From positions 1-32,071 of the forward strand of contig CALCSH010000025.1 in the NCBI GenBank assembly GCA_937893815.1: a DNA stretch of 32,071 nucleotides, read 5' to 3'. The position numbers were made by a program, and so were the translations under genes. Shown in pieces: positions 4,604-26,256 of this stretch; within the stretch, counting starts at the first letter, position 1, and every line of letters starts with the position of its first letter. Under the pieces are notes generated by a model. That model made no database searches and was not told the DNA's origin. It was given only the letters and a program-made list of their open reading frames with translations. Origin of the DNA: an uncultured Anaerolineae bacterium. GTDB taxonomy: Bacteria > Chloroflexota > Anaerolineae > Anaerolineales > UBA11858.

Positions 4604-4623
4604 CAGCAAGCAAAAATATTTGA

Positions 4624-4632: not shown

Positions 4633-4734
4633 CAGCGCGACATACGAAAAATTAGGATATATGCAAGCGTGATGAGCGAAGTAAGCATAACTTTCAACGA
4701 ATTGCACAAATCCTAAAAAATAGGAGCAAGACTC

Positions 4735-6309: not shown

Positions 6310-6885
6310 CTACTGCGCCGTACGCAACCTTCTGGCAAAAATAATCACCAAAACCAGCGCAGCAGCCAGCGATAACATCCCCGGAATTCCAACATCATCT
6401 GCGAAACCTGTGGAGGGAAGTTGTGTCGCCGCGGGGGTGACAGTCATTAAATTTGACGCCTGTTGAGTGAAGAGCGCCGCCATCGTTGCCGTGAGATGAT
6501 CCTCACGCGATTGAGCCAGTCCCGCGGCGGGCGTATCAGTAATTGCCATCACCGGGGTTGGGCTGGATGTTGCCGTAACGGGCAAGGGTGTCTGGGTAGC
6601 GGTGGGAGTCGCGGTCCACGATTGGGCTTCCGCGGTCATATTTGCCGCCAGGGCTACCTGAGTGTTTTGAGCATTAATTTGGGCAATCTGGGTGCTTTCT
6701 GCCGTCCGGCGCCGGGGCACAATCACCATCGCATAAACAGCCATCAGCACCAGTGACAGGATGAGGAACGCGCCCAATACACCAGCAACCAGTAAAAAGG
6801 TACGATTGCTCGATTCTTCGGGTGGAGTTGCCTCGTCCCCTTCCATTTCCAAATCATCAAAGTCGAAATCATCCATCATAGTCAT
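6310..6885 (-). CDS. Thr/Ala/Pro-rich membrane protein with a C-terminal LPXTG-like sorting signal
   Basis: The 191-aa product has an acidic N-terminus, a TM segment (FLLVAGVLGAFLILSLVLMAVYAMVIV) and a T/A/P-rich segment. It then has LPSTG, about 10 residues, a hydrophobic stretch (IPGMLSLAAALVLVIIFA) and a basic tail RRLRTAQ. A GAGGAG SD lies 8 nt upstream of the ATG. Confidence 0.65.
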   Translation of the reverse strand: MTMMDDFDFDDLEMEGDEATPPEESSNRTFLLVAGVLGAFLILSLVLMAVYAMVIVPRRRTAESTQIAQINAQNTQVALAANMTAEAQSWTATPTATQTPLPVTATSSPTPVMAITDTPAAGLAQSREDHLTATMAALFTQQASNLMTVTPAATQLPSTGFADDVGIPGMLSLAAALVLVIIFARRLRTAQ

Positions 6886-6911
6886 TGTTCGTTCTCCTCA
6901 GGTTGCCCTTT

Positions 6912-7970: not shown

Positions 7971-8002
7971 GGTTACTCTACTAGGTGCAAATTTTATACC
8001 AG

Positions 8003-9757
8003 CTAATTGCCAAGCGTCCAGAGCCAGCGTTGCATAGCTTCGCGGCGGCGATCCAGGTCTGTGGGCAGTTGGATTGGCCGCCCGCGGGCGTCAATCACAA
8101 TGCCGAGAGTGCCACCAACCACGTTGACGCGTCCTCCGCGACCGGGGCCGCCCATGCCCACGTCGAAGCGGTGCAGCGGCTGCAGGTGCAGTTGCGCATT
8201 CTGTCCCTGGGGCAGCGGGATGACCTCGATGCTGCCGAACTTGATTTCATGTTTGGTTTCTGTGCCATTTTCAAATGTAGCGCGTACGCGTAAGATGGGC
8301 GTGCCCTTGCGAGCGATGCCGACCGGAGCGATAACCGTGCCCAGGTTTAGGAAGGCATGCGATTCGAGCACCTGGACCGCCAACAGCGAGTTTGCCTCTG
8401 CCGCTGCGCCTAGAGAAGCGAGAAGGTCATTTTGGTCGATAACTATCGTTGTCACGCCTGCAGGTTGCAAGCCATCAAGCAGCATCAGCAAGCTCTGACC
8501 AGGTGTGGGGGCGTGGCTGATAACGCTGCCCGAGGCCAGAATGGGTTCTACCCACGGCAAAATATTTTGCCCGGCGCTTTTGAAGGCCGGTGGCAACGTC
8601 GACATCGTTTTTTGGGTTGTCAGGCGCAGCATTTGACGCGCTACGGCTTGTTCGATGAAAAGTTCTTCGCGCGTGGCAGGCAGGCTGGCCGGGTAAATCG
8701 ATTTGTTGTAGAGGTAGTTGCGCACATCATCGTTGGCTATATCTTCGGGTAGCCAACGAGAAATTTGCTCGATAGGCATATAATTCAATATCTGATGGAT
8801 AGCATCGCCCAGCCCAAGTTGAGGAAAAACTCTCAGTGTGAGTTCCCCTTTGAGTGCAGCCGCTACGGTGACAGCAGAAGCCCCAATATCAATCCCCAGC
8901 ACACCCTTCTTGGGGTCGTAAATATGGCTCAAAAAACGGATAATGCGCCCGAATGCGGTTGATGAGGGCAATATCCGACCCTCCGCCCACTGATCAAAAT
9001 CCATCACCCCGTACATCTCTTGGGAGCGGATGGTTTTAAAAATCTTGGTGAGTTGCGCTTGCGCTGGTGTGAGCTGCTCGACAGGAATGGATGGACGAAT
9101 ATTGGGCGCCATATGCAGATCGGTGATTGGCGCAATAGCGCTTTCCACCGCTTCTTGGATGGCGCTGTTGCCCGCGTATAAAACCTGCGGGCGTTGACTG
9201 CGCGGCAGCAGGTAGCAGGCCAGCCCAACAGCTTCAAGCAATTTATGTACCGATTGCTCCGCACCACCATCAATACCCCCGGCGACGATAATCAGATCAG
9301 GGCGAGCGCGTAAAATAGCATCAATACGTTCGTCTTGTTTGCGCCGATCGTTAATGCTGATGGTCTCGGTCACAGTAGCGTAGGTAGTAGATGCCAAATT
9401 TCGTGCGCTTTCCAGCGAGACATTTTCCAACAGCCCCACAGCAACCACGCGGATATTGGCGCCCGCAGAGAGAGTAACGACGAGTTTATCCAGGCCGGTG
9501 CCATCGGGTTGGCTTGGAATCAACAGACCGCCATCCGAACCGAGCAGGAGCCGGCCGGTGATTTCCTGCAGACGGTAGATTGCGCGGTTGACGCCTTCAC
9601 GCACATCGCTGAAGGGAGGTGATGCCGTAGTAGGCGCGGTGCCAGCTGCCATAAAACGATAGCGTGAGCCAACCACATCAAATAAAGCCGCTCGCGTCGT
9701 AACAGAGCCAATATCAATCGCCAAAATGGAGTCGGTAACAACAATTGAAGACATCAT
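8003..9757 (-). CDS. ASKHA (actin/Hsp70/sugar-kinase fold) ATPase, GlmL/MutL (glutamate mutase L)-like
   Basis: A phosphate-1-like motif ILAIDIGSVTTRAALFD lies near the N-terminus. LIIVAGGIDGGAEQS resembles the GlmL/MutL GGtDGG motif. A second DxG motif (VLGIDIGASAVTVAA) occurs mid-protein. I prefer the ATG at 9757 (second Met of the track ORF) because it forms an ATGA overlap with the upstream stop at 9754-9756. This gives 584 aa. Confidence 0.6.
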   Translation of the reverse strand: MMSSIVVTDSILAIDIGSVTTRAALFDVVGSRYRFMAAGTAPTTASPPFSDVREGVNRAIYRLQEITGRLLLGSDGGLLIPSQPDGTGLDKLVVTLSAGANIRVVAVGLLENVSLESARNLASTTYATVTETISINDRRKQDERIDAILRARPDLIIVAGGIDGGAEQSVHKLLEAVGLACYLLPRSQRPQVLYAGNSAIQEAVESAIAPITDLHMAPNIRPSIPVEQLTPAQAQLTKIFKTIRSQEMYGVMDFDQWAEGRILPSSTAFGRIIRFLSHIYDPKKGVLGIDIGASAVTVAAALKGELTLRVFPQLGLGDAIHQILNYMPIEQISRWLPEDIANDDVRNYLYNKSIYPASLPATREELFIEQAVARQMLRLTTQKTMSTLPPAFKSAGQNILPWVEPILASGSVISHAPTPGQSLLMLLDGLQPAGVTTIVIDQNDLLASLGAAAEANSLLAVQVLESHAFLNLGTVIAPVGIARKGTPILRVRATFENGTETKHEIKFGSIEVIPLPQGQNAQLHLQPLHRFDVGMGGPGRGGRVNVVGGTLGIVIDARGRPIQLPTDLDRRREAMQRWLWTLGN

Positions 9758-10425
9758 GCGGGGAAGATTAGTATTTTGATAAACTGCCACAAATACATAA
9801 AACGCTCGATCAACGCCGTTATGGCGGCGATATACACACCGGCAAATAAGGCACCAAAGGTGATCGCGATAAATGTTTTACCGCTCCAGCGCAACGCCCG
9901 GGTGAGGAGGCTGGCAGATTGATTTTGGGTTTCGTTTTTACGCGTGCTGAATTGAAAGTAGAGCAATGTACTCAGGGTTCCGACCAAAATCACCAGGGCA
10001 TTAATAAAAGTTTGGTTTTCAAACACGCTCATCGAAGCAACGGTCTGCGGGAATATGGTACCGAAAGTGGCACCACCAATTGCAACTGCGGCACCAATGC
10101 CCACCAAGATTGCGACCGCTGGGTTGCCCAACGGGCTCAGGCGTGGCGATATTTTCATCAACAGTAATACGCTGGGCACCAGGAAACTCACCGCCAGAAA
10201 GATCTCGCCCCGATTGCCATCCAGAAAGGGAAAAATCAGATGCGGCAAAATGATATTGTAGAGCGTCACAATTGTCGTGTAGCCCGCTGCTGTGCCGACA
10301 AAAATATGCGTCGCCAGACGGAAAAGAAAATTATCACCGATGATAAAACTTAACACGAAAATCGTGAGCGTAAATCCCAGTAACGCGCCGCTCAGGTCGG
10401 CCAAACTCATGGTTGCGATATTCAT
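9754..10425 (-). CDS. Polytopic membrane protein (about 6 TM), unknown family
   Basis: I prefer the start at ATG 10425 (MNIATMSLADL...), which forms an ATGA overlap with the upstream stop at 10422-10424. The 37-codon extension in the ORF track is Arg/Gly-rich and overlaps the upstream CDS. The product is about 223 aa and very hydrophobic. Confidence 0.65.
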   Translation of the reverse strand: MNIATMSLADLSGALLGFTLTIFVLSFIIGDNFLFRLATHIFVGTAAGYTTIVTLYNIILPHLIFPFLDGNRGEIFLAVSFLVPSVLLLMKISPRLSPLGNPAVAILVGIGAAVAIGGATFGTIFPQTVASMSVFENQTFINALVILVGTLSTLLYFQFSTRKNETQNQSASLLTRALRWSGKTFIAITFGALFAGVYIAAITALIERFMYLWQFIKILIFPA

Positions 10426-12719
10426 GTGGCCTCTCCAGGGGTTTTCTTGCGGGTGAAATGTGACATCAGGTTGGCCGCGACCCCGATTAGCAGTACGATT
10501 ACGGCGGCCATCAGTGCGTAGTTGAGCGTATCCCAATAGACGCGCGCCAGATTGGGTTTGCCGATCACCTGCTCGTAGGCAGCCCCACCGTTCAGGCCAC
10601 TGATCAGACCGCTGAGCTGGGCGTTAGGCCCACTGGCATAGGGATGTAGAATTGGCTCGGCTTGTGCGCTCACAACTGCTATCAATGGGGTATCTTGCAG
10701 GTATGGTTGCACTTGCTCTAGCCATGTACGAGCGGTATCCGGGTTGTCTGTAATGAGCAGCACCAGCTTGTAATCGGCCAGCGACTGAATCCCACTTAAT
10801 GCCGGTGTTTGCCAGGCTTCCATGCCATCGAAAGAGAGCGGAGTGATTCGACTGGGCATTTGAACAAAGCCCAATAGGCCGGAAGCTCCGCCGGGGATAT
10901 AACCTAAATTGGTGTACTGAATTCCGCTGGTATAGCCGTGTTCGCTTTGAATGGTGTGAATGAAATATTCTGCCAGTGCTGGCCCGGTGGGGGATGTAGA
11001 CACAAGACTCAGGTATGCGCCTTTGAGCATCAAATGATCGATAACGGCAGCCGAGGCGGCATTCATTTCGCCGGATGTGCCGGGTTCGAAGTCGAAGGAA
11101 ACCAGCACCGGATCTGTCGGGGCAAGTGCTTCGATCAAATCTGCCAGATGCAGCATTTCGGCTGGAATAGCTACGCCAGAAGGCGGGGGCACCGTTTGGC
11201 TTTCGCTCATCACACCCAATGCGACCACAAAAATCAATAGCAGAGCGCTTACCCAGCGCAATAAGTTTTGAGTAGAAATATGGATCGGCTCGCGAGTAAA
11301 TTTTGGTGTGCCCTCGTTGTTGAGTAAATCTGTAAAAATACGCACATGTTCTTGTTGCGCCGGAGTGATTTCCAGCTTTGATGTGAATGTTGGCGCTTTT
11401 TTCAGCCGGGCAATTTCTGGCTCGGCCATCAGAACCCCGCTCAACCCGGCCAGCGGTCCGGTTTGCTCGATGGGGCCGTGCTCTGTGGGGTGGTGCGCGG
11501 CGCTAGATTCCACCGGACGCATGGCTTGCAGCCAATCGGGTAAATCTGCCGGAGCTGCCAAATCGTCGGCGGGCGGTTCATCCGCGTCGTAACTATCGCT
11601 AAAAGCGTCGCTCAACGCGTCCAGGGCAAAAAGATCATTATCCGCGTTGCTCAACTCAGATTCCAGGGTGGGCGCTTCAAGTTCGAAGGATTCGGCAGAT
11701 GTTCCCGCTCCGAGCGTTTCCAGCCAATCGGGTTCGAACTCGTCGCTGGGGGTTAAATCGGCTCCAATTCCGACGGCGGATTTTGAATCGGATTCAAAAT
11801 CTGTAGGCCATTCTGGCATCAACGGGCTGGTATCGGGGAGAATGGTGGACAGTGCGGCGGCATGGTCGGGGTCATCCTGGCCCGACATCCAATCTGGTAG
11901 CCCGTCGTCGAATTTCTCGGCGGCGAATTCTTTGGACATCCAGTCGGGTAGGCCGTCACCAGCGGGTGCTGGCTGGCTTTCATCGGGGATGGATGCCGAT
12001 TCGGGTTGATCGTTGTCGGCGCTGAACATCCAATCGGGCAGGGCTTCCCCATCGCTCTCCAGCGCGGGGCTGGCGGATTCGACTGCCGGGGCAGCATGGG
12101 TCAACCAATCGGGGAGTTCGGGATCAGGCTCTGGGCTGGCGGCGGGTATCTCCGGTGTGGATTCTGCCTCTGGGGCGTTGTTGCTGTCGAAGTTCAGCAT
12201 CCAGTCGGGAAGTTCTTCGGATTCCGCTGCGGGAGGTGCTGCGGCTTGATTGCCGCTATCAAGCTTGGAGAGCCAATCGAGCATAGCGTCTTCGGCAGCA
12301 GGGTCAGGTTCTGGCGCGGCAGGCGGCTCTTTGGCTTCGGGAACGCTCATCCATTCGGGTAATTTGCCATCAAAGATCGAAGATTCATCTTCGGATTCGT
12401 CGGCGTCGTCTTCATCGTCGAAGCCGCGCATACGTCCAAGCCAGTCATCACCGGAATCATCAAAGGGAGCGGCATCTTCATCGTCAGGCGAATCCGCTTC
12501 CGGGCGGAGTCCGGCAAGCCAGTCTTCGGGTTCGGCATCCGCTGTGGAGGAAGGTTGATCTTCGAATTCGGATTTCATCCAATCGGGCAATCCGCTGTCC
12601 CCTCGATCAGCATCATCTCCGGAAACAAAGAATGGCGTCAGGCGCGCCTGACAGTATTGACATTTTTCAAGCTGATCGGGGTTGTTTTTGCCGCACATTG
12701 GGCAGCGAATTTCGCTCAT
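10422..12719 (-). CDS. Zinc-ribbon protein with a long acidic W-motif repeat region, two TM segments and an extracytoplasmic domain
   Basis: The 765-aa product starts with CPMC-x10-CQYC (residues 6-23). About 440 residues of D/E/P/A/S-rich sequence follow, containing 13 xP[DE]W[LM]-type motifs. Then come a TM segment (WVSALLLIFVVALGVM), an about 230-aa domain, and a C-terminal TM segment (ALMAAVIVLLIGVAANLM). Confidence 0.8.
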   Translation of the reverse strand: MSEIRCPMCGKNNPDQLEKCQYCQARLTPFFVSGDDADRGDSGLPDWMKSEFEDQPSSTADAEPEDWLAGLRPEADSPDDEDAAPFDDSGDDWLGRMRGFDDEDDADESEDESSIFDGKLPEWMSVPEAKEPPAAPEPDPAAEDAMLDWLSKLDSGNQAAAPPAAESEELPDWMLNFDSNNAPEAESTPEIPAASPEPDPELPDWLTHAAPAVESASPALESDGEALPDWMFSADNDQPESASIPDESQPAPAGDGLPDWMSKEFAAEKFDDGLPDWMSGQDDPDHAAALSTILPDTSPLMPEWPTDFESDSKSAVGIGADLTPSDEFEPDWLETLGAGTSAESFELEAPTLESELSNADNDLFALDALSDAFSDSYDADEPPADDLAAPADLPDWLQAMRPVESSAAHHPTEHGPIEQTGPLAGLSGVLMAEPEIARLKKAPTFTSKLEITPAQQEHVRIFTDLLNNEGTPKFTREPIHISTQNLLRWVSALLLIFVVALGVMSESQTVPPPSGVAIPAEMLHLADLIEALAPTDPVLVSFDFEPGTSGEMNAASAAVIDHLMLKGAYLSLVSTSPTGPALAEYFIHTIQSEHGYTSGIQYTNLGYIPGGASGLLGFVQMPSRITPLSFDGMEAWQTPALSGIQSLADYKLVLLITDNPDTARTWLEQVQPYLQDTPLIAVVSAQAEPILHPYASGPNAQLSGLISGLNGGAAYEQVIGKPNLARVYWDTLNYALMAAVIVLLIGVAANLMSHFTRKKTPGEAT
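11532..12590 (-). repeat. Coding array of 13 short Trp-centred acidic motifs (consensus LPDW[ML])
   Basis: The motifs in order are LPDWM, PEDWL, GDDWL, LPEWM, MLDWL, LPDWM, LPDWL, LPDWM, LPDWM, LPDWM, MPEWP, EPDWL and LPDWL. Every Trp before the first TM lies in one of them. The spacers vary in length and sequence, so this is not a nucleotide-level tandem repeat. Confidence 0.85.
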
Positions 12720-12722
12720 GAG

Positions 12723-13394
12723 CTACCCTCCGTAGGGCCGGTCACTGCCGGTGAGAATGCGAATGCCAGTGGCAATGGTGCCTAAAGCCACGCCGAGTAA
12801 AATGCCGCGTGCGCCAGCCAACGCAGGGACGCGTAAAATCCAATCACGGAATTCGGCGAGTAATGGCGCCTGAGCGGCAATTTGTGGAGCCGCGCCGATC
12901 AGTAGCAGCAAAACGACCCCCACGAACACAATTGAAAATAAATTCAGGCGACGCGAAAGCAGCCGCGCGGCGGCGTAGGTAAGGCTAATGGCCAATACCG
13001 CCATCAGGCTGGTTTCGATGGGCAATTGGATATAGTTGAAGATCCAGCGAATGCGCTGGAAGTTGAGTTCCTGGTGGAGATGGGTTTGTAAGATATCGTA
13101 GATGCCTACGCCGAGTGTGACGATCAGCGAGACAAGCAACACAAAGCTGTATCCGCCGCCCTCATTTTTACGGATTTTGTGCAAATGCACCCCGACCAGG
13201 TTAAAGACACCCACGATCAGCGCCACGGAGGCCCAAATGATAGCGCCTTGTAAAAAATAATTGCGCAAAAAGCCCAAGCTGGTGGTCTCCCCCCTGGCAT
13301 TGGTGCCGAAAATATAGCCCAATAGAACAACAAATCCCACACTGATAGCGATGGCTGTGGAAACTGGAGATTTAAATTTGAAATTAAATTTCAT
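12723..13394 (-). CDS. Polytopic membrane protein (about 6 TM), unknown family
   Basis: The 223-aa product is hydrophobic. Its ATG overlaps the upstream stop (ATGA at 13391-13394), and its stop lies 3 nt before the next ATG (12719). Confidence 0.7.
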   Translation of the reverse strand: MKFNFKFKSPVSTAIAISVGFVVLLGYIFGTNARGETTSLGFLRNYFLQGAIIWASVALIVGVFNLVGVHLHKIRKNEGGGYSFVLLVSLIVTLGVGIYDILQTHLHQELNFQRIRWIFNYIQLPIETSLMAVLAISLTYAAARLLSRRLNLFSIVFVGVVLLLLIGAAPQIAAQAPLLAEFRDWILRVPALAGARGILLGVALGTIATGIRILTGSDRPYGG

Positions 13395-14176
13395 GGGGCC
13401 AGCCCCCCGAGCAGATTGGTGACAAGTTGATCCAGGCCAAGAAATTTGAGGGCCGCCCCAGCAATGATGATAACCACAAGCAGCCAGCGAATCACGTCTT
13501 GGGCGCGCAGGCTGGCGATGTGCATTGGTCCCGCCTGGGTATAGGCTCCGCTGGCGTAAAGTTCTTCTCCGATGAGTGGTTCCTGGGCTGTGGCAAATAG
13601 AATTGCCTGGGCGGGTAGGTTATCGGTCCCAGCCAGGGTCAGATCGTTGTTGCGTTCGGCGGCATCGCTAATCAGGGCGACTTCACTGCCAAAATGTCCG
13701 AGAAGAATATGGGCGTTGGTTTTTTCGTTTTCGACGGTGGCAAGGGTTCCGACGGCGTATGAGAAAGGAGTCATTCCGGCGAGTTCGCCGCTAGTTGGCT
13801 GGTATTGCTCACTGATGCCGATATCGCGGTAGGTGGCGCGCAGAGTATCGCGCGACAGAATGGCGAGTGACGCGTCGCCGCTGGTGGCAATGGGTGGGTT
13901 ATCGCCTGAGGAGGCCGAGCGGGCAATGCTTTCCAGAACGCTTAATCCCACAAAGGCGGCAGCACTTTCTGGCCCGGAGAGTTTGCCGCGCCCAATGCTA
14001 ATATGCAGCCGCGAACCGGCTTCTACGGCCAGCCCGATGGCGCGGCTCAATTTTTGAAACGCGGAAATGGGGCGCAAATGGGTTTCGGAATTCTCACGAT
14101 GCGTGATTGTGAAGATGAGAATCAGTCCGAAAAAAGCGAGAATAAAAGCCAATCCTATAAGACCGGTAAAGGCCAC
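13391..14176 (-). CDS. Membrane protein with N- and C-terminal TM segments flanking an about 200-aa domain, unknown family
   Basis: The 261-aa product uses a GTG start with a GGAGGT SD 8 nt upstream. TM segments lie at both ends (GLIGLAFILAFFGLILIFTI and WLLVVIIIAGAALKFLGL). Confidence 0.7.
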   Translation of the reverse strand: MAFTGLIGLAFILAFFGLILIFTITHRENSETHLRPISAFQKLSRAIGLAVEAGSRLHISIGRGKLSGPESAAAFVGLSVLESIARSASSGDNPPIATSGDASLAILSRDTLRATYRDIGISEQYQPTSGELAGMTPFSYAVGTLATVENEKTNAHILLGHFGSEVALISDAAERNNDLTLAGTDNLPAQAILFATAQEPLIGEELYASGAYTQAGPMHIASLRAQDVIRWLLVVIIIAGAALKFLGLDQLVTNLLGGLAP

Positions 14177-16075: not shown

Positions 16076-19000
16076 ATGATGTTGATAAATACCAGAAACT
16101 TTTCACCACGAAGGATACGAAGAACCACAAAGAAAGACTTTGTGAATCTTCGTGCCCTTCGTGGTTTATTCGTTTTTACTGTCTTTTTGTTGGTGGGTTG
16201 TACTGCGCCCCCGGTGGCAACATCTTCGCCCACCGCGGCGAAAAGTGAATCAACACCAACAGAAACCGTGCAGGTTGTAGTTCCACCCATGGCGCAATTT
16301 TCGCAAATCTTAGCCGGTGTAGATGGCAATAACAACTACGACTTCATTGAATTGAGTAACCCAGGCAGCGACGCCCCCTTCGATCTACGTGGCATGTCGC
16401 TGTGGTATCAACTCGCCGATGGCGGTGAAGCCGAACTGGTTTATCAATGGGATGAGCATGCTCTGATTCCGCCAGGCGGATTCTATCTTTTAGGACGCGC
16501 CGTCGAAGATTATGGCCTGCCCGTGGAGGCTTTTATTGAAACGCCACTGGTACCCCAACGCGGCGGACTGCAATTGCGCGCCGCTGATAATACTGTGCTG
16601 GATTCGTTGGTGTGGGGAAATGGCCCGCAAACTGATTTTGGCGTTGTTTCCGTCCAGGCGATGTCTAATGGAGTCGCTTTGGTGCGCAACCGGGGTGCAT
16701 TCGTCCTCAATTCGGCACTTGCGCCGCGCAACACAACTTTGTTCGGCGATCTCCAAATTGCACTGGAAGCTCCAGCGACGGTCAACCCTGGCGAAGAATT
16801 TATCTATTCTCTCACCCTACGCAATGTTGGCGCAGTTCCGGCCAGCGGCCTGACCGCTCAAATTCCCATCGCCAATGATTTCGAAATTATTGCACTGGCT
16901 CCCGATATGCAGCTTGTCGATCAGGCGGCTTTCTTTGGTCTGGATGCGCTTGGCGAGACGCACCAGATCATCTTGCTGCCCATCGATACTCTCGCCGCCG
17001 GTGAGACGCGCTCCTCTGAAATTAGGCTCAAAGCGCCTTGGACTTATCTCACGATGACCGCGGCCAATATCACCCTGGCTGATGCCAGTGGCGCATGGCT
17101 GGCGCAGGCTGGCACGCAGCGAACCGCTGTGGCCGGGGGCGCAATTCCAATCGGCACGGCGCGGGGAATGGCGAATCAGGAAATTATTGTTGAAGGCATT
17201 GCCACGATGTATTCCGGCGGCTACTATGCTGGCAGCGGCAACACCAAATTCTATATCGAAGATGAAACCGGTGGCTTGCAGGTTTGGGTGGATGATGGCG
17301 AAACCGATGTGCATGTGGCGTTGGGGGACCGCGTGCGCGTGCGTGGCATGTTGCTGGTCTATCGAAACGCCATGGAATTGGCACCAACATCCGCGGGCGT
17401 AGAAGTTATCGAAAAAGGTACGGATGCCGCATCCTGGCCCGCTTTGACAGTTAGCGTCGAGGACGCCGCCAATGATGCGCAGCATCTCGCTGGAAGGCTG
17501 ATTCAGACCGAGGGAACAGTTGCCCGCATCGAGGAGTTCAGCTACAGCTATGAGATCGACCTGGTAGACGAGTCCGGAAATCTGGCGAGCATCTATGTTG
17601 ATAAACTCACCGAAATCAACATGGAAGCCATCCAGAGCGGTGAAACCTACCGCGTCACCGGCGTGGTTGAAGTCACTGATGATACCCCACGGATTTACCC
17701 GCGCATCCAGAGCGATTTGGCGAAGGTCTATCCGCCGGTTCTGGAGGTTGTGATCAATGCCCCGGCGGCGGTAAAGGCTGGCGAAGAATTCAGCGTAACT
17801 CTGACCATCACCAACTACACACCCGACATGCTGACCGATGTCGCCGTGACGGCCCCCTTGCCCGCATACGATTTTCGAGTGCTGGCGATTGCTGACGGGG
17901 GCGTAGAAGAGAACAAAACGATCACCTGGACGATTCCGCAGTTGGCCGCGGAAGGCGGCGCAGTCCGTGTTTCGTATCAGGCGCTGCTGGTGACCCGTCA
18001 GGCTTCGATTCAGTTGAAGCCCGCCCAGGCCAGCGCCGAGGGGGTGGAGCCTGCCGAGAGCCTGGCGCTGGATGTTTTCATTGGCGATCAGGTGCCAGTA
18101 TGGGCCATTCAAGGGGTGGGTGAGCGCTCGCCGTATGTTGGCGAAAGCGTGACCACGACTGGCGTTGTCACCGGTATTTTCCCCGCGCTGGATGGCTTCT
18201 GGATTCAGTCCAAAGAAACCGACTATGATTCCCGGACTTCGGATGGTCTGTTTGTGTGCCGCGGGGCGCTGGCTGACGATCTGCGGCCCGGCGATTGGGT
18301 GCAGGTCAGTGGCGTGGTGCGTGAGGCCTACCAGCAAACCTGCCTGGAAATCGCTGCTGCACAGGATGTTGTCACGCTCAGTTCAGCCCATACGCTACCC
18401 GTGGCCGAAGAATTGAATCCACCCGCCGAGATAGAAGCGTCACTGGCGTATTACGAGAGTCTGGAAGGTATGTTCGTGCAGATCACGCAAGCGGCCTTCG
18501 TTGTCGCCCCCAGCAATCGCTATGGTGAATATACCCTCGTGCGCGCCGATCAGGGTGTAACGCGCTTGTGGCAAGGCCAGGAGAACGGCAACGCAATTGT
18601 CGTAGATGACGGCAGTAATATCGCCCACGATGACCGCTCCACGATGGCCTATGTCGTCAACAGCGGCGATCAAGTTACCAATCTCATTGGGCCGCTGGCA
18701 TTCACTTATGGACAGTACAAAATTGAGCCGGTGGCGAAGCCTGCCGTGCTGGCCGTGCAAGCTGATTTGCCCAGCCTGCCTGCCCTGGCAACTGACGAAT
18801 TCAGCCTGATGACCTGGAATGTCGAGAATCTCTTCGATTTCACCGACCCGCATCCCTCCAGCCCGCCCATGCCGTCAATTGACGAATATCGCATTCAGAT
18901 CGCCAAAGTAGCCAACACCATCGTGGCTGCTGGAGCGCCGATCATCGTGGGTTTGCAAGAAGTCGAGAATATCGGCATTTTGGAAGATATTGTTGCCCAG

Positions 19001-19630
19001 GAAGCGCTGGCCGGGTACGACTATCAGGCGGTGTTGATCGAGGGTACCGATAGCCGTTATATCGATGTTGGCTATCTGGTGCGCGGCGATCAGGCCCAAA
19101 TTCTGCGCCAGGAGCAGTATCCCGCCCCGGATGGCCTCACCAGCCGCCCGCCGTTGCTGGTAGCGGTGGAAATTGTCACATCGCAGGGTGCACAGACGTT
19201 ATTCCTATTGAACAATCATTTTACTTCGATGAGCGGTGGCGAAGCGGCCACCGAGCCGCGTCGCAATGCACAAGCGGCCTGGAATGTGAGTGTGATGCAA
19301 GAACTTCTGGCGGATGAGAGTGGTCTGTTGGCCGTGATGGGCGACTTGAACTCGTATTATGATTCGCTCCCGATTGAAACTTTGCGGCAGGCCGGGTTGG
19401 TGCATGTTTTCGAGGCAATTCCCGCCGAGGCGCGCTATACTTATATCTATCAGGGGCAATCCCAGGTGCTCGATCATATTCTGGTGACGCCCCCATTGAT
19501 GGCGCTGCTGCGTCGGGTGGATGTACTCCACGTCAATGCCGACTACGCCCTGCCCGCCGCGGAGGACACCTCCCCGTTGCATAAATCGGATCATGATCCG
19601 GTGGTAGCGGTGTTTGCGGTGGCGCCTTAG
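16076..19630 (+). CDS. ExeM/NucH-family extracellular endonuclease, predicted lipoprotein (LTD + CARDB-like repeats + OB folds + EEP nuclease domain)
   Basis: The lipobox is FLLVGC. A lamin-tail-like domain (LTD) follows (NYDFIELSNPGSDAPFDLRGMSLWY). Two CARDB/DUF11-like repeats are present (VNPGEEFIYSLTLRNVG and VKAGEEFSVTLTITNYT), then OB-fold-like segments (FYIEDETGGLQVWV). The C-terminal endonuclease/exonuclease/phosphatase (EEP) domain runs from FSLMTWNVENLFD to SDHDPVVAVF. The start is ambiguous: ATG 16076 abuts the upstream TAG, whereas in-frame GTG 16142 gives a textbook 20-aa lipoprotein signal (M)NLRALRGLFVFTVFLLVGC. Confidence 0.85.
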   Translation: MMLINTRNFSPRRIRRTTKKDFVNLRALRGLFVFTVFLLVGCTAPPVATSSPTAAKSESTPTETVQVVVPPMAQFSQILAGVDGNNNYDFIELSNPGSDAPFDLRGMSLWYQLADGGEAELVYQWDEHALIPPGGFYLLGRAVEDYGLPVEAFIETPLVPQRGGLQLRAADNTVLDSLVWGNGPQTDFGVVSVQAMSNGVALVRNRGAFVLNSALAPRNTTLFGDLQIALEAPATVNPGEEFIYSLTLRNVGAVPASGLTAQIPIANDFEIIALAPDMQLVDQAAFFGLDALGETHQIILLPIDTLAAGETRSSEIRLKAPWTYLTMTAANITLADASGAWLAQAGTQRTAVAGGAIPIGTARGMANQEIIVEGIATMYSGGYYAGSGNTKFYIEDETGGLQVWVDDGETDVHVALGDRVRVRGMLLVYRNAMELAPTSAGVEVIEKGTDAASWPALTVSVEDAANDAQHLAGRLIQTEGTVARIEEFSYSYEIDLVDESGNLASIYVDKLTEINMEAIQSGETYRVTGVVEVTDDTPRIYPRIQSDLAKVYPPVLEVVINAPAAVKAGEEFSVTLTITNYTPDMLTDVAVTAPLPAYDFRVLAIADGGVEENKTITWTIPQLAAEGGAVRVSYQALLVTRQASIQLKPAQASAEGVEPAESLALDVFIGDQVPVWAIQGVGERSPYVGESVTTTGVVTGIFPALDGFWIQSKETDYDSRTSDGLFVCRGALADDLRPGDWVQVSGVVREAYQQTCLEIAAAQDVVTLSSAHTLPVAEELNPPAEIEASLAYYESLEGMFVQITQAAFVVAPSNRYGEYTLVRADQGVTRLWQGQENGNAIVVDDGSNIAHDDRSTMAYVVNSGDQVTNLIGPLAFTYGQYKIEPVAKPAVLAVQADLPSLPALATDEFSLMTWNVENLFDFTDPHPSSPPMPSIDEYRIQIAKVANTIVAAGAPIIVGLQEVENIGILEDIVAQEALAGYDYQAVLIEGTDSRYIDVGYLVRGDQAQILRQEQYPAPDGLTSRPPLLVAVEIVTSQGAQTLFLLNNHFTSMSGGEAATEPRRNAQAAWNVSVMQELLADESGLLAVMGDLNSYYDSLPIETLRQAGLVHVFEAIPAEARYTYIYQGQSQVLDHILVTPPLMALLRRVDVLHVNADYALPAAEDTSPLHKSDHDPVVAVFAVAP
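16105..16165. repeat. 61-nt imperfect palindromic element (CACGAAGG family), copy 1
   Basis: It has three nested stems: ACCACGAAGG/CCTTCGTGGT (16105-16114 with 16156-16165), ACGAAGA/TCTTCGT (16117-16123 with 16147-16153) and CACAAAG/CTTTGTG (16126-16132 with 16138-16144). Related copies lie at 27446-27497 and 30603-30656. This copy lies inside the annotated 5' end of the nuclease ORF. Confidence 0.65.
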
Positions 19631-21028: not shown

Positions 21029-21036
21029 TGTATAAT
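21029..21036 (+). promoter_or_regulatory. Candidate extended -10 box TGTATAAT (distal copy)
   Basis: The 9-mer TGTATAATC occurs twice, 46 nt apart, upstream of the TPR gene. Confidence 0.3.
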
Positions 21037-21074: not shown

Positions 21075-21082
21075 TGTATAAT
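21075..21082 (+). promoter_or_regulatory. Candidate extended -10 box TGTATAAT (proximal copy) for the TPR/J/GrpE/Hsp70 operon
   Basis: TGTATAAT lies 25 nt upstream of the ATG at 21108. GGAG (21097-21100) lies between them as the SD. Confidence 0.4.
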
Positions 21083-21107: not shown

Positions 21108-23330
21108 ATGGCAAAAAAACGAAGCAAATCTCGCAAAAAATCCGCTCAGAGTGCAGCGGCACTGCGTCTTAATGGCTTAAGAGCTTTTCAGGGTGGTGAT
21201 TACGAACAGGCTATCCAAACCTGGGAACGGATACCCGAATCTCAGCAGCCAATACCGGCCCTGGCGGAAACTTATTTCCGGCGAGGGCTGGAGCGCTTCT
21301 ATGGTTCCGTTTCTCAGCCTCAAGATGCTTTGAAAGATTTTCAAAAAGCCGCCGAAATCCAACCCGAAGATCCGTGCTATGCCTTTCACCTGGGATTGGC
21401 CTCTCATCATCTGAGCGACATCCCGCAGGCCATTCAGTCGTACCGGCTGACGCGCCGGACTGCCGGGCCTTATGCAAAGCGTGCTGCCTACCCGCTGGCT
21501 CTGGCGCTGCTCCAACAGGGGCAAGACCCAAGCGTTGATGCGGTGTGGGCTGAATTGGGCGCCGATGAGCGAGTTATGCTGCAAGAGGCGGGCGTTTTTC
21601 GCCGCCGCCCGTACCAACTGGCTCCTGAAACGCCACAGCTATGGCGTGCATTGGCTGCCCTAGATGCAGGCGACCTCCTGGCCGCGCAAACAGGCCTGGA
21701 GGAATGCCCGGCAGCCACAGAAACCGAACAGGGTATTTTGCATTATTATCGCGGCGTGCTATCGGCTCAACTGGAAGAATGGGAATCTGCCCGCCGTGAA
21801 TGGCTGGCCGCTTATTCCTCTGGGCTTCGCGGCCAGCCATTGAAGCATAATCTGGCAGAGATATTTCACCGGGCGGCAGAAGACGCACTCCTGAACGGTG
21901 ATTCTCAGATTGCACTGGCTGCCGCGCAAGAGGCAGGTCGGCATAAATCAGAGGACAACGCGCTGAACGGGTTGTTGGCTCAAATTTACCAGCATTTGGG
22001 CTACCAGGCTGCCCTGGCCAGCCGATGGGAGCAGGCTCAAAACCACTGGCAAACGGCGGTTGAACTGGATAGCAGCAGTTTTCGATTGGCATATAATCTG
22101 GCGTTGGTTTACGAGCGCAGAGAAAACTATCTGTCAGCCGGTGAAACCTGGCGCGAGGCTTTACGTCGCCGCCCGCGCCGCGCCGACCATCCCGATGCCA
22201 TTTCCGATGAGCAGGTGGCCCGCCTGTGGCAGCGCACCGCCGAGGCGTACCGCCAAGCAGGTCAGTTGGATGAGGCCACCCGGGTTTATCAGCAAGCTAT
22301 CAAGTGGTCGCCCGAAAACCTCGATGTGCGCCTGAACATGGCTGAGAGTTTGTTATTCGATGGCCGGATTCAGGCTGCCCAAAACGAATTAGAGCGTATC
22401 CTCGAGCGGAATCCAGACCATGTCCCCACGTTGATCCGCCTGGGCGAGGTACTTTTTCGCAATCAGAATTGGTGGGTTAAAGCCGGTGCGCGGCGTCATT
22501 GGGAACACGCTCTGAAATTGCAACCGGCAAACCCACAGGTGCGCCAGGCTCTGGCGGAGTGGTACCTCGATCAGGCTGAAATTGATTATTCCTGGGATCG
22601 TTTCAAAGAAGCGATTGAAAACTACCAAAAATCACTGGAATATCAGCCCCATGATGCTTATCTATTAGCCTGTATTGCCAACTGTTTGATTCATTTGGGC
22701 GATCTGGAACAGGCGGGCGACTATGCCAACCAGGCCTTTGAACACGCCGGTAGCAATCTGGATATTCCCAACGAACTTCTGAGTGGATGGATCGCCGTAG
22801 ACAACCCGGAGCAAGCCTGGGAGACGATGAAACGATTCGAAGCGCAGAATAGCTCAATCCCCGGGGCCTTCTACCTCTCTCAGGCCGCCAAATGGTTGGA
22901 TGAAGACGATTTGGAGAATGCGACTTCCTGGCTGGAGCGCGCTGTTTCCCAAGCGGCCCCCGATGAAACGATCCTGTACCTGATTGGCGCGCGACTGATT
23001 GACTATGACGATGACCTGGCCCGCCAATATCTGGAACAAGCCATTGCTGCCCAACAAGTTCCCGGAAAGGCTCACCTGGCGTTGGCTCGTCTGGAAGCAG
23101 ACCTTAGAAATGTCAGAGAGAGTAAGAAGCATCTTAACGAGGCCGAGCGCATCGCCCGTACTACGAAAGACCGTGATCTGGCCGAGAAGGTGGAAATCGC
23201 TCGCATGATGTCTGGCGGCCCACAGGTTTTGATGCAACGGCTGATGGAGATGGGTTCCCCCGAGTTATTTGAGAGTTTCCTGAATTATTTTGACGACGAA
23301 TTTGCCCCGGATGAATTCTATGATGATTGA
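21108..23330 (+). CDS. Tetratricopeptide (TPR) repeat protein
   Basis: I prefer the start at ATG 21108 (MAKKRSKSRKK...), which has a GGAG SD 7 nt upstream. The 19-codon upstream extension in the track is Cys/Trp-rich and overlaps the promoter. About 740 aa carry many TPR-like helix pairs (for example ALKDFQKAAEIQPEDPCYAFHLGLASHH and AIENYQKSLEYQPHDAYLLACIANCLIHLGD). Confidence 0.85.
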   Translation: MAKKRSKSRKKSAQSAAALRLNGLRAFQGGDYEQAIQTWERIPESQQPIPALAETYFRRGLERFYGSVSQPQDALKDFQKAAEIQPEDPCYAFHLGLASHHLSDIPQAIQSYRLTRRTAGPYAKRAAYPLALALLQQGQDPSVDAVWAELGADERVMLQEAGVFRRRPYQLAPETPQLWRALAALDAGDLLAAQTGLEECPAATETEQGILHYYRGVLSAQLEEWESARREWLAAYSSGLRGQPLKHNLAEIFHRAAEDALLNGDSQIALAAAQEAGRHKSEDNALNGLLAQIYQHLGYQAALASRWEQAQNHWQTAVELDSSSFRLAYNLALVYERRENYLSAGETWREALRRRPRRADHPDAISDEQVARLWQRTAEAYRQAGQLDEATRVYQQAIKWSPENLDVRLNMAESLLFDGRIQAAQNELERILERNPDHVPTLIRLGEVLFRNQNWWVKAGARRHWEHALKLQPANPQVRQALAEWYLDQAEIDYSWDRFKEAIENYQKSLEYQPHDAYLLACIANCLIHLGDLEQAGDYANQAFEHAGSNLDIPNELLSGWIAVDNPEQAWETMKRFEAQNSSIPGAFYLSQAAKWLDEDDLENATSWLERAVSQAAPDETILYLIGARLIDYDDDLARQYLEQAIAAQQVPGKAHLALARLEADLRNVRESKKHLNEAERIARTTKDRDLAEKVEIARMMSGGPQVLMQRLMEMGSPELFESFLNYFDDEFAPDEFYDD

Positions 23331-23739
23331 TTCACTTTCCCAAATTCCCGATCCCGGCCAGGAGCGAAAACAGTCGGCACATGAACGCCAACCAGACCTG
23401 ACCAGTAGCGATCCGTATACCGTTTTGGGCTTGCCGAGCCGCGCCCCGGCCCGCGAAATTAAGCGCAAATACTTCGAATTGGTGCGCCAATACCCCCCCG
23501 AAACACATGCCGATGAATTCAAACTGGTAAGAGCGGCCTATGAAAAACTGCAAACTGAAGAGGCCAAAGCCGAAACTGATCTATTCTTATTTCAACCCCC
23601 GCCCCCCTGGGAGCCTCGCAAGCGCGCCTCAAAATTTGATCTGGCGTTTGATCCGCAAGACATTTGGCTGCTACTGCAAAGCCACGCCGATCTGGGGGCC
23701 GTCGATTTCACAGCCGATTATCGTCAGGTGAAGATATGA
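23311..23739 (+). CDS. J-like domain protein lacking the HPD tripeptide
   Basis: DPYTVLGLPSRAPAREIKRKYFELVRQYPPETHADEFKLVRAAYEKL aligns with J-domain helices I-III, but it has PPE where HPD is expected. The start is ambiguous (TTG 23290, ATG 23311, 23320 or 23323), and all candidates overlap the end of the TPR gene. Confidence 0.7.
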   Translation: MNSMMIDSLSQIPDPGQERKQSAHERQPDLTSSDPYTVLGLPSRAPAREIKRKYFELVRQYPPETHADEFKLVRAAYEKLQTEEAKAETDLFLFQPPPPWEPRKRASKFDLAFDPQDIWLLLQSHADLGAVDFTADYRQVKI

Positions 23740-24437
23740 GCAATCATCGCCAGGTCTGGGAAACCCTGAGCCATCTTCTCAATCGGCTGGAAGGTGATGT
23801 AAGTGGCCCGAACGATACGACGCCAGCGCCAGAATCAGGGGATGGGCTGGTCAATTTAGAAAAAGAAGTTCGCAAACTTGGAAAAACCCAATTCAAGGCA
23901 AATGCTCTGGTTGAGGATCAATCTGCTCATCTCGAAAAAATAGTAGCCAGTACACAGTCGGCCCAGGAACAAAACACCCGCCTGCTGGAGATGTTGGCAG
24001 AAAATCACACCGCAGCAGCCCAGAAAGACCTGCTCGAAGCCTTGCTGCCAGCCCTGGATGGATTGGACAACGCCATCTCGAGCGGGCAGCATTACCTGGC
24101 AAAACGCGATCTGGCAGCCCGCAGCGCGACGATTTCCCCGGCGCAAGCTGTGCTGGTTTCCCCTGCCGATCGTGCGATCTTGGCCGGATGGTTGGATGGC
24201 TTACGTCTGGTACGCGAACGCCTGCTGGCAATTCTCGAAGCCGGCGGGGTAACGCCCATCCCGTCAGTGGGTTTGCCATTTGACCCGTACCAACATGTTG
24301 TCGTCGGTAAAACGCCCCAGGTTGCCTCTGGCATACAACCCACCCCTGGCATCATCACTGCGGAAGAACGCTGCGGCTACCGCTCTCCGGCTGGCGTTCT
24401 GCGTTATGCCGAAGTGATCGTTTACCGGGCAGATTAG
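23736..24437 (+). CDS. grpE: GrpE-like nucleotide exchange factor (divergent)
   Basis: I prefer the start at ATG 23736 (MSNHRQ...), which forms an ATGA overlap with the upstream stop. A long helical N-terminal half is followed by a GrpE-type C-terminal beta domain (GVTPIPSVGLPFDPYQHVVVG ... GYRSPAGVLRYAEVIVYRA). Confidence 0.7.
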   Translation: MSNHRQVWETLSHLLNRLEGDVSGPNDTTPAPESGDGLVNLEKEVRKLGKTQFKANALVEDQSAHLEKIVASTQSAQEQNTRLLEMLAENHTAAAQKDLLEALLPALDGLDNAISSGQHYLAKRDLAARSATISPAQAVLVSPADRAILAGWLDGLRLVRERLLAILEAGGVTPIPSVGLPFDPYQHVVVGKTPQVASGIQPTPGIITAEERCGYRSPAGVLRYAEVIVYRAD

Positions 24438-24468
24438 AACGACTATGACTCTCTGAGATTTTGCGTGG

Positions 24469-24530
24469 TATTCTCCATATCTGGACATTACCACGCGAAC
24501 TCTCAAAAAACAAACGCTATATGGAGAATA
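24469..24530 (+). promoter_or_regulatory. Inverted repeat able to sequester the Hsp70 SD sequence (candidate translational control element / RNA thermometer)
   Basis: TATTCTCCATAT (24469-24480) is the exact reverse complement of ATATGGAGAATA (24519-24530). The second arm contains the only SD-like sequence (GGAG 24523-24526) before the ATG at 24538. A second stem, GCGTGGTA (24463-24470) with TACCACGC (24489-24496), is adjacent. Confidence 0.45.
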
Positions 24531-24537
24531 TGTCCTT

Positions 24538-26256
24538 ATGAGTAAAATAGTTGGTATTGACCTCGGCACCACAAACTCGGGTGTTGCAGTTGTGCGTGAT
24601 GGCGTGCCGGTTATGCTGCCCAACGGCAACGAGCGCATCATCCCTTCTGTTGTAGGGTATTCAGCCGATCAGCAATGGCTGGTGGGAACTCCTGCCCGCA
24701 ATCAGTATGTTCTCGACCCCGAGAATACCATTCGCTCCATCAAACGCAAAATGGGTGGCGATACCCGCACCACCCTGGGCGGCAAGTCCTTCAGCCCCCA
24801 GGAAATTTCGGCTTTTCTTTTGCGCGAATTGAAGGAAATTGCCGAGCGCAGCCTGGGATACGAGGTCAGTGATGCCGTCATCACCGTTCCGGCCTATTTT
24901 TCAGACGCAGCCCGTCAGGCCACCCGGGATGCCGGACGAATCGCCGGATTCAACGTGCGTCGCATCATCAACGAACCCACTGCGGCGGCCCTGGCGTATG
25001 GTCTTGAAGGCTCCGATGATCAGACCGTGCTGGTTTATGACCTGGGCGGCGGCACTTTCGATGTCTCATTGGTGGAACTGATGGGCGGTATCGTAGAAGT
25101 GCGCGCCAGCCATGGCGATACGCAATTGGGCGGCGACGATTTCGACCTGCTCCTGGCCGAGCAAATCGCAGCCTGGTTCGATGAGACTCATGGTGTGAGG
25201 GTGCATGACGACCGGCGGGCTTTTGCCCGAATCTTGCGGGCTGCCGAAACGGCAAAAATCCAACTTTCATCCCATCCGTATACCTGGGTCAAAGAAGAAT
25301 ATCTGATAGAAAAAAATGGGGTACCGCTCCATCTGGAATATGAGATCAGCCGAAAAGATTTCGAAATCCTGATCCAGCCGCTGCTCCAGAAAACCCTGGA
25401 GTCGATCAATCAGGTGATTCTCGATTCGGGCGTTTCTACCGAACAGATTCAGCAGGTCTTGATGGTAGGCGGCTCATCGTATATCCCTGCTGTGTGGGAA
25501 CTGGTAGCCGAAACCCTGGGCACAGAACCCCACATGTCGCTAAACCCGGAGGAAGTTGTCGCCCTGGGGGCTGGCGTGCAGGCGGCTATCATCGCTGGCG
25601 AGCCGATTGACGCTATCCTTGTGGATATCACCCCGCACTCCCTGGGCATCGCGGTCGCGAAGGATTTCATGGGGCAGTTGATCTCCGACCGCTATAAAGT
25701 CCTGATCCGGCGCAATACCACCATCCCGACCACCAAAGAAGAAGAATTCTATGCCATCTATCCCGACCAGGACACAATCCGCATTGAGGTCTATCAAGGG
25801 GAGCATCCGGTGGCCTCCAAGAACACCCCCCTGGGCGAGTTCCTGATCACCGGGTTGGAGCCAGAGAAGCCCGAAGAGACAGCCGCCATCACCGTGCAAT
25901 TTGATTTCGATGTCAATGGCATTCTCAAGGTTACAGCCCGCGATCGTAAAACCGGCAAACAGGAGGCGATTACGGTAGAGGCCTCGCGCACCCGGTTAAG
26001 CGAGGCCGAAATTCTTTCGGCAAAGAAATGGGCAGATCAGGAAGCGCTTTCGCTGGTGTCTCTTTCGGATGAAACGCGCGTTCTGGTGGACCGCGCCCAA
26101 AAACTCCTGGAAGGTAAAACCCTTTCCGATGAAGACCGCCAGGAACTGGGGATTCTACTATCCGGCATTGATGAGGCCCAGGCGATTGGCGACGAAGAGG
26201 ACCTGGACGAATTGGCGCAATCGCTGCTCGATTTGCTATTCGATTTGGAGGACTGA
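24538..26256 (+). CDS. Hsp70 family chaperone (DnaK paralogue with shortened C-terminal lid)
   Basis: The product has [25 protein letters not shown], the interdomain linker [13 protein letters not shown], a beta-sandwich substrate-binding region and an acidic C-terminus ([21 protein letters not shown]). It is 572 aa. Confidence 0.9.

Follow-up and report, generated by a model that had tools for sequence, protein, structure and literature searches.

Among the bacteria surveyed for dnaK, 98.9% carry the gene, and dnaK paralogues are most frequent in the Chloroflexi (54.5% of 55 genomes; PMC11019930). Four cultured members of the class Anaerolineae, namely, Anaerolinea thermolimosa, Longilinea arvoryzae, Leptolinea tardivitalis, and Ardenticatena maritima, are entered with DnaK pairs in the same survey (PMC11019930, Data Set S2). 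A 2026 review refers to such DnaK derivatives as unexplored "dark matter." HscC, an Hsp70 outside the DnaK type, is characterized by an insertion in loop L1,2, a deletion in helix B, the loss of the disordered tail, and an acidic/aliphatic end; in Escherichia coli it is stimulated by the J-domain protein DjlC, and its peptide binding is dominated by positive charge (Mayer's review, PMC8215388). Cyanobacteria combine a DnaK paralogue, DnaK1, with GrpE and with DnaJ3, in which a J-domain is fused to tetratricopeptide repeats (TPR), and this set does not act as the general stress chaperone (PMC12288463, PMC9239167). DnaJ-TPR fusions are among the commonest class C architectures (PMC10410713). In Myxococcus xanthus, the grpE-like gene MXAN_6672 is located directly upstream of a second dnaK (MxDnaK2, or SglK, MXAN_6671) in a bicistronic operon that is downregulated on heat shock (PMC11019930); an earlier note on the DNA studied here had named this pair as an example of specialized Hsp70/GrpE pairs. 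This DNA is the 32,071-nucleotide (nt) contig CALCSH010000025.1 of an uncultured Anaerolineae bacterium (the window), which contains four co-directional genes for a TPR protein, a J-like protein, a GrpE-like protein, and an Hsp70. We propose that this cassette probably encodes an accessory, self-contained Hsp70 cycle that operates beside the general DnaK system. No description of the cassette was found in the literature searched.

The four genes recognized in the earlier note are all present, and Pfam agrees with each assignment (Table 1). The TPR gene ends with a TGA codon (23328-23330), and candidate start codons of the J-like gene are TTG at 23290 and ATG at 23311, 23320, and 23323. The overlap between the two genes that had been read by eye therefore amounts to 8 to 41 nt, depending on the start codon; the collection's own gene call of 139 amino acids (aa) implies the start at 23320. 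The overlap of the J-like and GrpE-like genes by ATGA (23736-23739) was likewise borne out. The nucleotide composition of the cassette resembles that of its flanks.

The Hsp70 did not reach the NCBIfam equivalog cut-offs for DnaK, with scores of 567.4 versus 648 for PRK00290 and 553.3 versus 822.55 for TIGR02350. Alignment with E. coli DnaK revealed an insertion of 8 residues in loop L1,2 of the β-subdomain of the substrate-binding domain (4 residues in E. coli HscC) and a loss of 8 residues in the lid helix A/B region (11 residues of helix B in E. coli HscC), both of which are kept in all orthologues. Helices D and E are 7 residues shorter than those of DnaK. In the nucleotide-binding domain, the segment equivalent to DnaK residues 76 to 101 has 24 fewer residues, a deletion that is also frequent in non-proteobacterial DnaKs (PMC8215388). 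The C terminus has no disordered tail. Thus, the protein is 572 aa long with a short helical lid, as the earlier note had described, but the acidic tail reported with them is not a free tail: the chain ends in a near-invariant helix motif, LLDxLFDLE(D), which is acidic and aliphatic like the end of HscC. The likeness to E. coli HscC extends to the size of the protein (about 550 to 580 aa), the deletion in the nucleotide-binding domain, the L1,2 insert, the shortened helix B, and the absence of a long disordered tail. The rare insertions and deletions, together with the type of J-domain described below, place the HscC-DjlB/DjlC systems, rather than a short-lid DnaK, nearest to the Hsp70 that the note had called short-lid. 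Unlike HscC, to which it is 36% identical, the Hsp70 of the window retains the subdomain IIB segment and the length of the GrpE-signature loop, as in DnaK, and a salt bridge of the K55/E267 type.

The match to PF00012 covers the nucleotide-binding domain, the linker (DAILVD), and the substrate-binding domain. The comparison of 28 Hsp70 orthologues (DnaK numbering) revealed that the catalytic residues K70, E171, D194, T199, and D201 and the allosteric residues P143, D148, R151, D393, and L484 are invariant. At the J-domain interface seen in the crystal structure of DnaK with DnaJ, R167, N170, T173, P419, D477, and L391 are present in all 28 proteins and Q378 in 27. The lower salt bridge of the nucleotide cleft is lost through two invariant replacements (R56 by N and E264 by R), the upper one is present (K55 as R, with E267), and the lid latch residues R536, D540, and H544 are not conserved. 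The predicted ATPase and allosteric core of the Hsp70 is thus intact, and its substrate-binding domain, as read from the alignments, is remodeled in the manner of HscC by the L1,2 insert, the trimmed lid, and the altered latch residues. In a neighbor-joining tree of 112 full-length Hsp70s, the Anaerolineae proteins were monophyletic (100/100 bootstraps). The smallest clade containing both the Hsp70 of the window and E. coli HscC comprised 69 taxa, all bearing the insertion and none of them a canonical DnaK, and the insertion-bearing group was recovered as one split in 44/100 bootstraps.

The J-like protein of the window has Y-P-P-E in place of the His-Pro-Asp (HPD) motif of J-domains. In 120 homologues, this position is occupied by YPPE (86 proteins), YAPE (15), YSPE (9), or close variants, and by HPD in none. 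A family profile aligned YpPE to the (W/Y)HPD of solved J-domains, with a loop that is 5 to 6 residues shorter. The AlphaFold2 model adopted the J fold (predicted local distance difference test [pLDDT] score of 72) and was superposed by Foldseek on the DnaK-bound J-domain (5NRO, chain B) with a root mean square deviation of 1.6 Å over 53 columns. Of the residues of DnaJ that contact DnaK, K48, K51 (as R), R22 (as K), P34, and the carboxylate of D35 (as E) are kept; H33 and K26 are not. An "HPD" located two residues after PPE in some orthologues was considered as a functional motif and rejected, because the residue at that position varies (H, N, Q, S, R, K, or E) and the alignment with DjlB and DjlC fixes the register; HPD occurs somewhere in the sequence in 37 of the 120 homologues. 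Outside the J-domain, a family-specific and nearly invariant C-terminal motif, ETDLFLFQPPxPWxPRKR, was placed without confidence by AlphaFold2. The score against the class A DnaJ model TIGR02349 was 27.2 bits for a cut-off of 377.2, and no G/F region, zinc finger, or C-terminal client-binding domain was detected in the 139 to 149 residues of the protein.

DjlB and DjlC share with this family the replacement of Asp by Glu, the short loop, and the register (HPETDPQGFK versus PPETxxxxFK), and they are counted among the HPE J-domains, which make up about 1% of all J-domains (PMC10410713). Unlike DjlC, a 483-aa protein that keeps the His, the protein encoded by the cassette is small and soluble, with Pro at this position. 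Mitochondrial Pam16 (Tim16) is similar in combining a J fold with a replaced HPD. Pam16 regulates a true J protein, Pam18, whereas the cassette encodes no HPD-bearing partner, and the replacement motif itself is strongly conserved across phyla here, in contrast to Pam16-type J-like proteins. The domain first described as "J-like" is not a degenerate J-domain but belongs to a conserved variant class: J-domains devoid of HPD that are under strong purifying selection across phyla.

The GrpE-like protein did not reach the GrpE equivalog cut-offs of NCBIfam (best score of 35 bits versus 137). Its C-terminal β-domain and bundle helix align with those of Geobacillus GrpE (4ANI), and the bundle helices are separated by some 26 additional, conserved residues, which include the invariant motifs SGxxYLxxRD and SPxDR. 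The TPR protein was modeled by AlphaFold2 (pLDDT score of 89) as a continuous all-helical solenoid of about 40 helices with disordered ends. Foldseek searches with this model matched only generic long solenoids (Ctr9, Ski3, OGT, and IFT-A; template modeling scores of 0.2 to 0.3) and provided no functional lead. Homologues numbered 280; among the matches listed, the length was about 660 to 770 aa and any name was "tetratricopeptide repeat protein." The N terminus is rich in Lys and Arg (median of 6 such residues at positions 2 to 16 versus 2 in control open reading frames [ORFs]), and the last 25 residues are acidic and aromatic. The TPR protein is read as a cytosolic solenoid scaffold. The E. 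coli hscC locus also encodes TPR-like repeat proteins, YbeQ and YbeT, which are small Sel1 proteins, unlike the large solenoid encoded here.

Scanning a genome collection with the GrpE-like subfamily yielded 33 loci. All 33 are in metagenome-assembled genomes (MAGs) of the class Anaerolineae, comprising members of the Anaerolineales, Thermoflexales, Promineifilaceae, and Ardenticatenaceae. The order TPR-J-GrpE-Hsp70 was found in essentially all of them wherever the contig extends far enough, the deviating loci being L036 and the damaged L001/L005 considered below. Identity to the proteins of the window ranged from 60 to 88% for Hsp70, 38 to 84% for GrpE, 47 to 80% for J, and 30 to 68% for TPR. 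Homologues of the GrpE-like, J-like, and TPR proteins came almost exclusively from metagenomes or MAGs labeled Anaerolineales, Anaerolineae, or Chloroflexi, and the database labels of homologues were limited to DnaK, GrpE, CbpA or J-domain protein, TPR protein, and hypothetical protein. To look for neighbors that might point to the client, the ORFs of 35 sequences (the window and 34 related loci) were clustered all against all, which recovered the four cassette genes and shadow ORFs only. The order of the genes is therefore kept across loci that differ in their flanks, so that the arrangement passes the test of conservation in relatives on which the earlier note had made its reading depend. 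The most divergent locus, L036, located on a complete Anaerolineae MAG chromosome (OZ241372.1), has TPR-J-GrpE without an adjacent Hsp70 gene. The GrpE-like domain of this cassette (L036:5662-7419) continues in frame into two RNase H domains, giving a fusion protein of 585 aa; a metagenome scan for a second fusion of this kind returned only ordinary RNase H genes.

An exhaustive search with the Hsp70 covered 1.84 billion representative proteins, and the best 150 matches were inspected. About half of these have the same L1,2 insertion, and many end in LL[F/Y]x[L/V/Y]E. Across the insertion-bearing family, R167, N170, T173, P419, and the catalytic residues are kept, and R56 is replaced by N. The nearest Hsp70s from outside the Anaerolineae are in clusters named just "molecular chaperone DnaK" (JGI). 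Genomic context was looked up for eight distant representatives (L039 to L046), with GC contents of 43 to 72%, and seven of them (L039 to L042 and L044 to L046) carry cassettes (Table 1). One, L045, is from a Planctomycetota MAG. L039 is probably from an Acidobacteriota because the cluster of a neighboring gene includes a protein from an Acidobacteriota MAG, and the neighbors of L046 encode type IX secretion, typical of Bacteroidota. The Planctomycetota thus have a version of the cassette, and the Acidobacteriota and Bacteroidota are probable further carriers. In all seven cassette-bearing loci, the small J protein reads [Y/H/F]-[P/A]-P-[D/E], the replacement motifs of distant relatives being HPPE, HPPD, HAPD, or FPPD. 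The scaffold starts with a Lys/Arg run (MAKKKKKKKK, MKKSRRQRNK, MPTKKKRARQ, or similar) in all seven except L041, whose called start is perhaps truncated. The permuted gene orders identify TPR-then-J and GrpE-then-Hsp70 as two fixed pairs. No flanking gene is shared among the seven loci, whose flanks are unrelated to each other. In two of them, a fifth small gene directly 3' of the Hsp70 gene (L044:5709-6104 and L046:7752-8072) has a product with a zinc ribbon (CxxC...CxxC) at its N terminus, which in L044 precedes TPR; this gene has no counterpart in the window. The checks proposed in the earlier note, a phylogeny combined with a neighborhood analysis, thus returned an arrangement that is conserved in the Anaerolineae and recurs elsewhere.

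Table 1. Features of the chaperone cassette in the window and gene orders at distant loci
Feature	Position	Strand	Description
TPR gene	21108..23330	+	740 aa; many Pfam TPR families
J-like gene	23320..23739	+	139 aa (149 aa from TTG 23290); Pfam DnaJ, 39 bits (cut-off 27.8)
GrpE-like gene	23736..24437	+	233 aa; Pfam GrpE, 56.5 bits (cut-off 25.8)
Hsp70 gene	24538..26256	+	572 aa; Pfam HSP70 (PF00012), 521 bits (cut-off 20.6)
TGTATAAT, extended -10 box	21075-21082	+	Likely operon promoter; ends 26 nt before the TPR ATG
TGTATAAT, second copy, extended -10-like	21029-21036	+	Putative; 46 bp upstream of the copy at 21075
Intercistronic hairpin	24454..24505	+	Within the 100-nt GrpE-Hsp70 spacer (24438-24537)
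GGAGA Shine-Dalgarno sequence of the Hsp70 gene	24524..24528	+	Inside ATATGGAGAA (24519-24528)
Locus L039			GrpE-Hsp70-TPR-J
Locus L040			TPR-J-GrpE-Hsp70
Locus L041			GrpE-Hsp70-TPR-J
Locus L042			704-aa protein-J-GrpE-Hsp70
Locus L043 (nearest to E. coli HscC)			No J, GrpE, or TPR by Pfam
Locus L044			872-aa TPR-J-GrpE-Hsp70-Zn-ribbon/TPR
Locus L045			718-aa protein-J-Hsp70, without GrpE
Locus L046			844-aa protein-J-GrpE-Hsp70-Zn-ribbon

The extended -10 box that the earlier note had taken for the likely promoter was read at the same position upstream of the TPR gene. A consensus scan detected no full -35/-10 pair on the plus strand. Of the 34 orthologous loci, however, 23 have a perfect TATAAT at a distance of 24 to 55 nt before the TPR start, for about 1 expected, and control windows located farther upstream had it in one locus each (two windows). 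Several orthologous loci have TTGCCA at the -35 position. In one sub-group of orthologues (L011, L016, L017, L019, and L020), the -35-like sequence TTGCCAGTTT is located about 13 to 17 nt upstream of TATAAT. The failure to see a CIRCE-like or HAIR-like operator by eye was confirmed by a search of the entire window for both operators allowing up to 3 mismatches and, for CIRCE, of the 34 orthologous upstream regions, in which the best candidate had 6 mismatches out of 18 positions. Judged from these sequences, the promoter is of a conserved sigma-70/housekeeping type without an HrcA/CIRCE operator.

The 100-nt spacer preceding the Hsp70 gene, which had been noted as structured, is predicted to fold into a strong hairpin (folding energy of -39.2 kcal/mol; z = -5.7; none of 200 shuffled sequences as good) that lacks a T-run behind it. 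The idea of a conserved RNA element was rejected, since length and sequence vary freely among orthologues: outside L015, the spacer ranges from about 0 to 330 nt and often, but not always, forms a hairpin. The hairpin of the window is therefore a local feature, which may plausibly affect the stability or processing of the mRNA. Long insertions were seen in the spacers of L015 (about 880 nt), L010 (about 330 nt), and L035 (about 285 nt), and the spacer of L029 is a run of short direct repeats of the GCATAC/TTGCA type. The segment that includes the Shine-Dalgarno sequence of the Hsp70 gene, ATATGGAGAA, could pair without mismatch over all 10 nt with TTCTCCATAT (24471-24480), which belongs to the hairpin's loop region. 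This pairing, which differs from the minimum-free-energy fold, might act as a translational switch. Contigs from aquatic metatranscriptomes match parts of the TPR, GrpE, and Hsp70 genes and the start of the spacer with at least 99% identity, one of them spanning positions 24265 to 24475. These matches are consistent with transcription of the cassette in situ, carry-over of DNA being an alternative source of the contigs.

Elsewhere in the window, a cluster of seven genes on the minus strand (6310-14176) resembles an uncharacterized operon. It encodes a PF13941 "MutL" ATPase of the actin/Hsp70 fold (8003-9790), a DUF6754 protein (13391-14176), and five proteins without a Pfam match (191, 352, 260, 765, and 223 aa). 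The GC content drops to 0.38 to 0.43 at positions 3001 to 5000, versus about 0.55 elsewhere; this dip covers a minus-strand gene (2930-4588) encoding cyclic-nucleotide-binding and bacterial PH domains. A protein of 1,184 aa (16076-19630), probably a nuclease or phosphatase that is secreted, has an N-terminal hydrophobic segment and Pfam matches to an OB-fold, a DUF11 repeat, and an endonuclease/exonuclease/phosphatase domain.

The cassette has the parts of an Hsp70 cycle in common with the canonical DnaK-DnaJ-GrpE system, including a GrpE-type exchange factor and the catalytic, allosteric, and J-contact residues of DnaK, and the question arises whether it is the general housekeeping or heat-shock system of the organism, merely diverged in the Chloroflexota. 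The grouping of the three genes, the finding that the Hsp70 matches DnaKs best in both PDB and NCBIfam, and the names given to homologues by the JGI pipeline ("molecular chaperone DnaK," "GrpE," and "CbpA") speak in favor of such an identity, as does the absence of a second system within 32 kb. It is nonetheless highly improbable. Both DnaK equivalog cut-offs were missed, the small J protein has neither HPD nor the domains of a full DnaJ, an 8-residue insert occupies the loop of the client-binding cleft, and no CIRCE was found. Moreover, related cassettes occur in other phyla, including a three-gene version devoid of GrpE in a Planctomycetota MAG and four-gene versions on Acidobacteriota-like and Bacteroidota-like contigs, while dnaK is nearly universal and its paralogues abound in Chloroflexi (PMC11019930). 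The suggestion that the machine is dedicated rather than housekeeping is thus supported by the missed cut-offs, the conserved arrangement, the lack of CIRCE, and the conserved -10 box.

What such a dedicated machine might serve can be considered in the light of better-known systems. The best-known cultured Anaerolineae are filamentous, which would suit a counterpart of the cyanobacterial DnaK1-DnaJ3-GrpE and Myxococcus SglK/GrpE-like systems, coupling the type IV pilus motor to polysaccharide secretion and to surface motility in bacteria that are filamentous or social. The parts list is the same, except that J and TPR are fused and linked to pilBTC in cyanobacteria and split here (PMC12288463, PMC9239167, PMC11019930). 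By description, the GrpE-like and Hsp70 genes also resemble the MXAN_6672/MXAN_6671 operon, for which no adjacent J or TPR gene is reported; the cassette has both. This function is unlikely, since no pil or polysaccharide genes are conserved beside the cassette in more than 33 loci, and the scores of the Hsp70 against PRK13410 and PRK13411, which we take to be models of cyanobacterial DnaK paralogues, are half of the cut-offs (508 and 490 versus 1019 and 1002). By NCBIfam scores, the Hsp70 is not a DnaK1-type orthologue. Somewhat more doubtful is the idea that the TPR protein is itself the client, a scaffold that self-associates through oppositely charged tails and is assembled or disassembled by the Hsp70, as clathrin is by Hsc70 and auxilin. 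The opposite charge of the tails is conserved across the family and phyla, no other conserved gene could encode a client, and HscC prefers positively charged peptides (PMC8215388). Against these compositional arguments, AlphaFold2 returned a monomeric solenoid with disordered tails. TPR proteins, moreover, are usually adaptors. The least credible of the readings is a role in phage defense or conflict, within the type of system that combines GTPases with Hsp70, GrpE, and DnaJ/TPR fusions, even though Hsp70-GrpE-DnaJ/TPR neighborhoods are known from systems centered on GAP1-N2 GTPases (PMC7159879) and toxin-antitoxin, Fic, or restriction genes are found near some of the loci. No gene for a GTPase, tubulin, FNIII, or effector protein is conserved with the cassette. 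Its composition is like that of the flanks, and its sequences diverge gradually across the class (38 to 84% identity for the GrpE-like protein), without a sign of recent transfer. PADLOC returned no significant match, its two hits (15.7 and 19.1 bits) being marginal, and a defense system was rejected.

Several observations weigh against an accessory Hsp70 cycle of HscC-like type. The Hsp70 is slightly nearer to E. coli DnaK (638 aa; 42% identity) than to E. coli HscC (556 aa; 36%), and the bootstrap value of the split that unites the insertion-bearing proteins is the 44/100 given above. E. coli HscC is thought to be independent of GrpE, unlike the Hsp70 of the cassette, which has a GrpE gene beside it. 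In all systems in which H33Q and D35N were tested, these replacements eliminated the function of the J-domain (PMC8215388), so that the PP[E/D] domain could be a J-like binder that does not stimulate the Hsp70. No canonical dnaK/dnaJ/grpE set was seen in the 32-kb window, which is the sole sequence of this genome examined. Finally, in the closest long-read MAG (L001/L005; contig_58763, 704 kb), only residues 437 to 739 of the TPR protein are left and the Hsp70 is distributed over two overlapping frames, reflecting either real decay or long-read errors, so that the cassette may be dispensable or the assembly error-prone. The neighbors of this damaged copy include Fic, HEPN/nucleotidyltransferase, and fragmentary YfbK/Mg-chelatase genes.

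In the accessory cycle that we favor, the TPR solenoid and the mini-J protein would form one two-subunit co-chaperone, a split version of the TPR-J fusions, because the two genes are invariably neighbors and in most cases overlap. The Hsp70 would be directed by this unit to a particular client or place. The proposal of the earlier note that the TPR protein confers client specificity would be in line with the constant adjacency of its gene to the J gene. The PP[E/D] J-domain may still trigger ATP hydrolysis, its Pro and Glu/Asp reaching P419, R167, and Q378; the hydrogen bond between the His and L391 of the linker would be lost, which may insulate the pair from DnaK and DnaJ. The GrpE-like protein would then reset the cycle. 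Since peptide binding by HscC is dominated by positive charge, the Lys/Arg-rich N terminus of the scaffold may be a docking peptide held in the cleft of the Hsp70; it could otherwise anchor the scaffold to the membrane or to nucleic acids. What appears to be new in the cassette is the combination of an HscC-like substrate-binding domain with a retained GrpE gene, a His-less J-domain, and a Lys/Arg-tailed TPR scaffold in a fixed four-gene layout. It is a tentative extension of this proposal, which we advance with less than even confidence, that the cassettes define a deeply conserved class of Hsp70 machines spanning several phyla, in which the PP(E/D) J-domain drives its cognate Hsp70, with its full set of J-contact residues, independently of the His and the Lys/Arg-tailed TPR scaffold is an obligatory targeting subunit.

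If this were true, the cassette would add a fourth type of bacterial Hsp70 system to DnaK, HscA, and HscC, and the rule that HPD is indispensable would have an exception in nature. With four small co-encoded parts, it represents a concrete, testable unit of the DnaK-derivative dark matter. The extent to which Hsp70 activation requires the HPD motif could be tested directly with it, and it bears on how orthogonal Hsp70/J pairs are insulated from DnaK and DnaJ within one cell. Once its client is identified, a gene set shared by Chloroflexota, Planctomycetota, and probably two further phyla would have a function.

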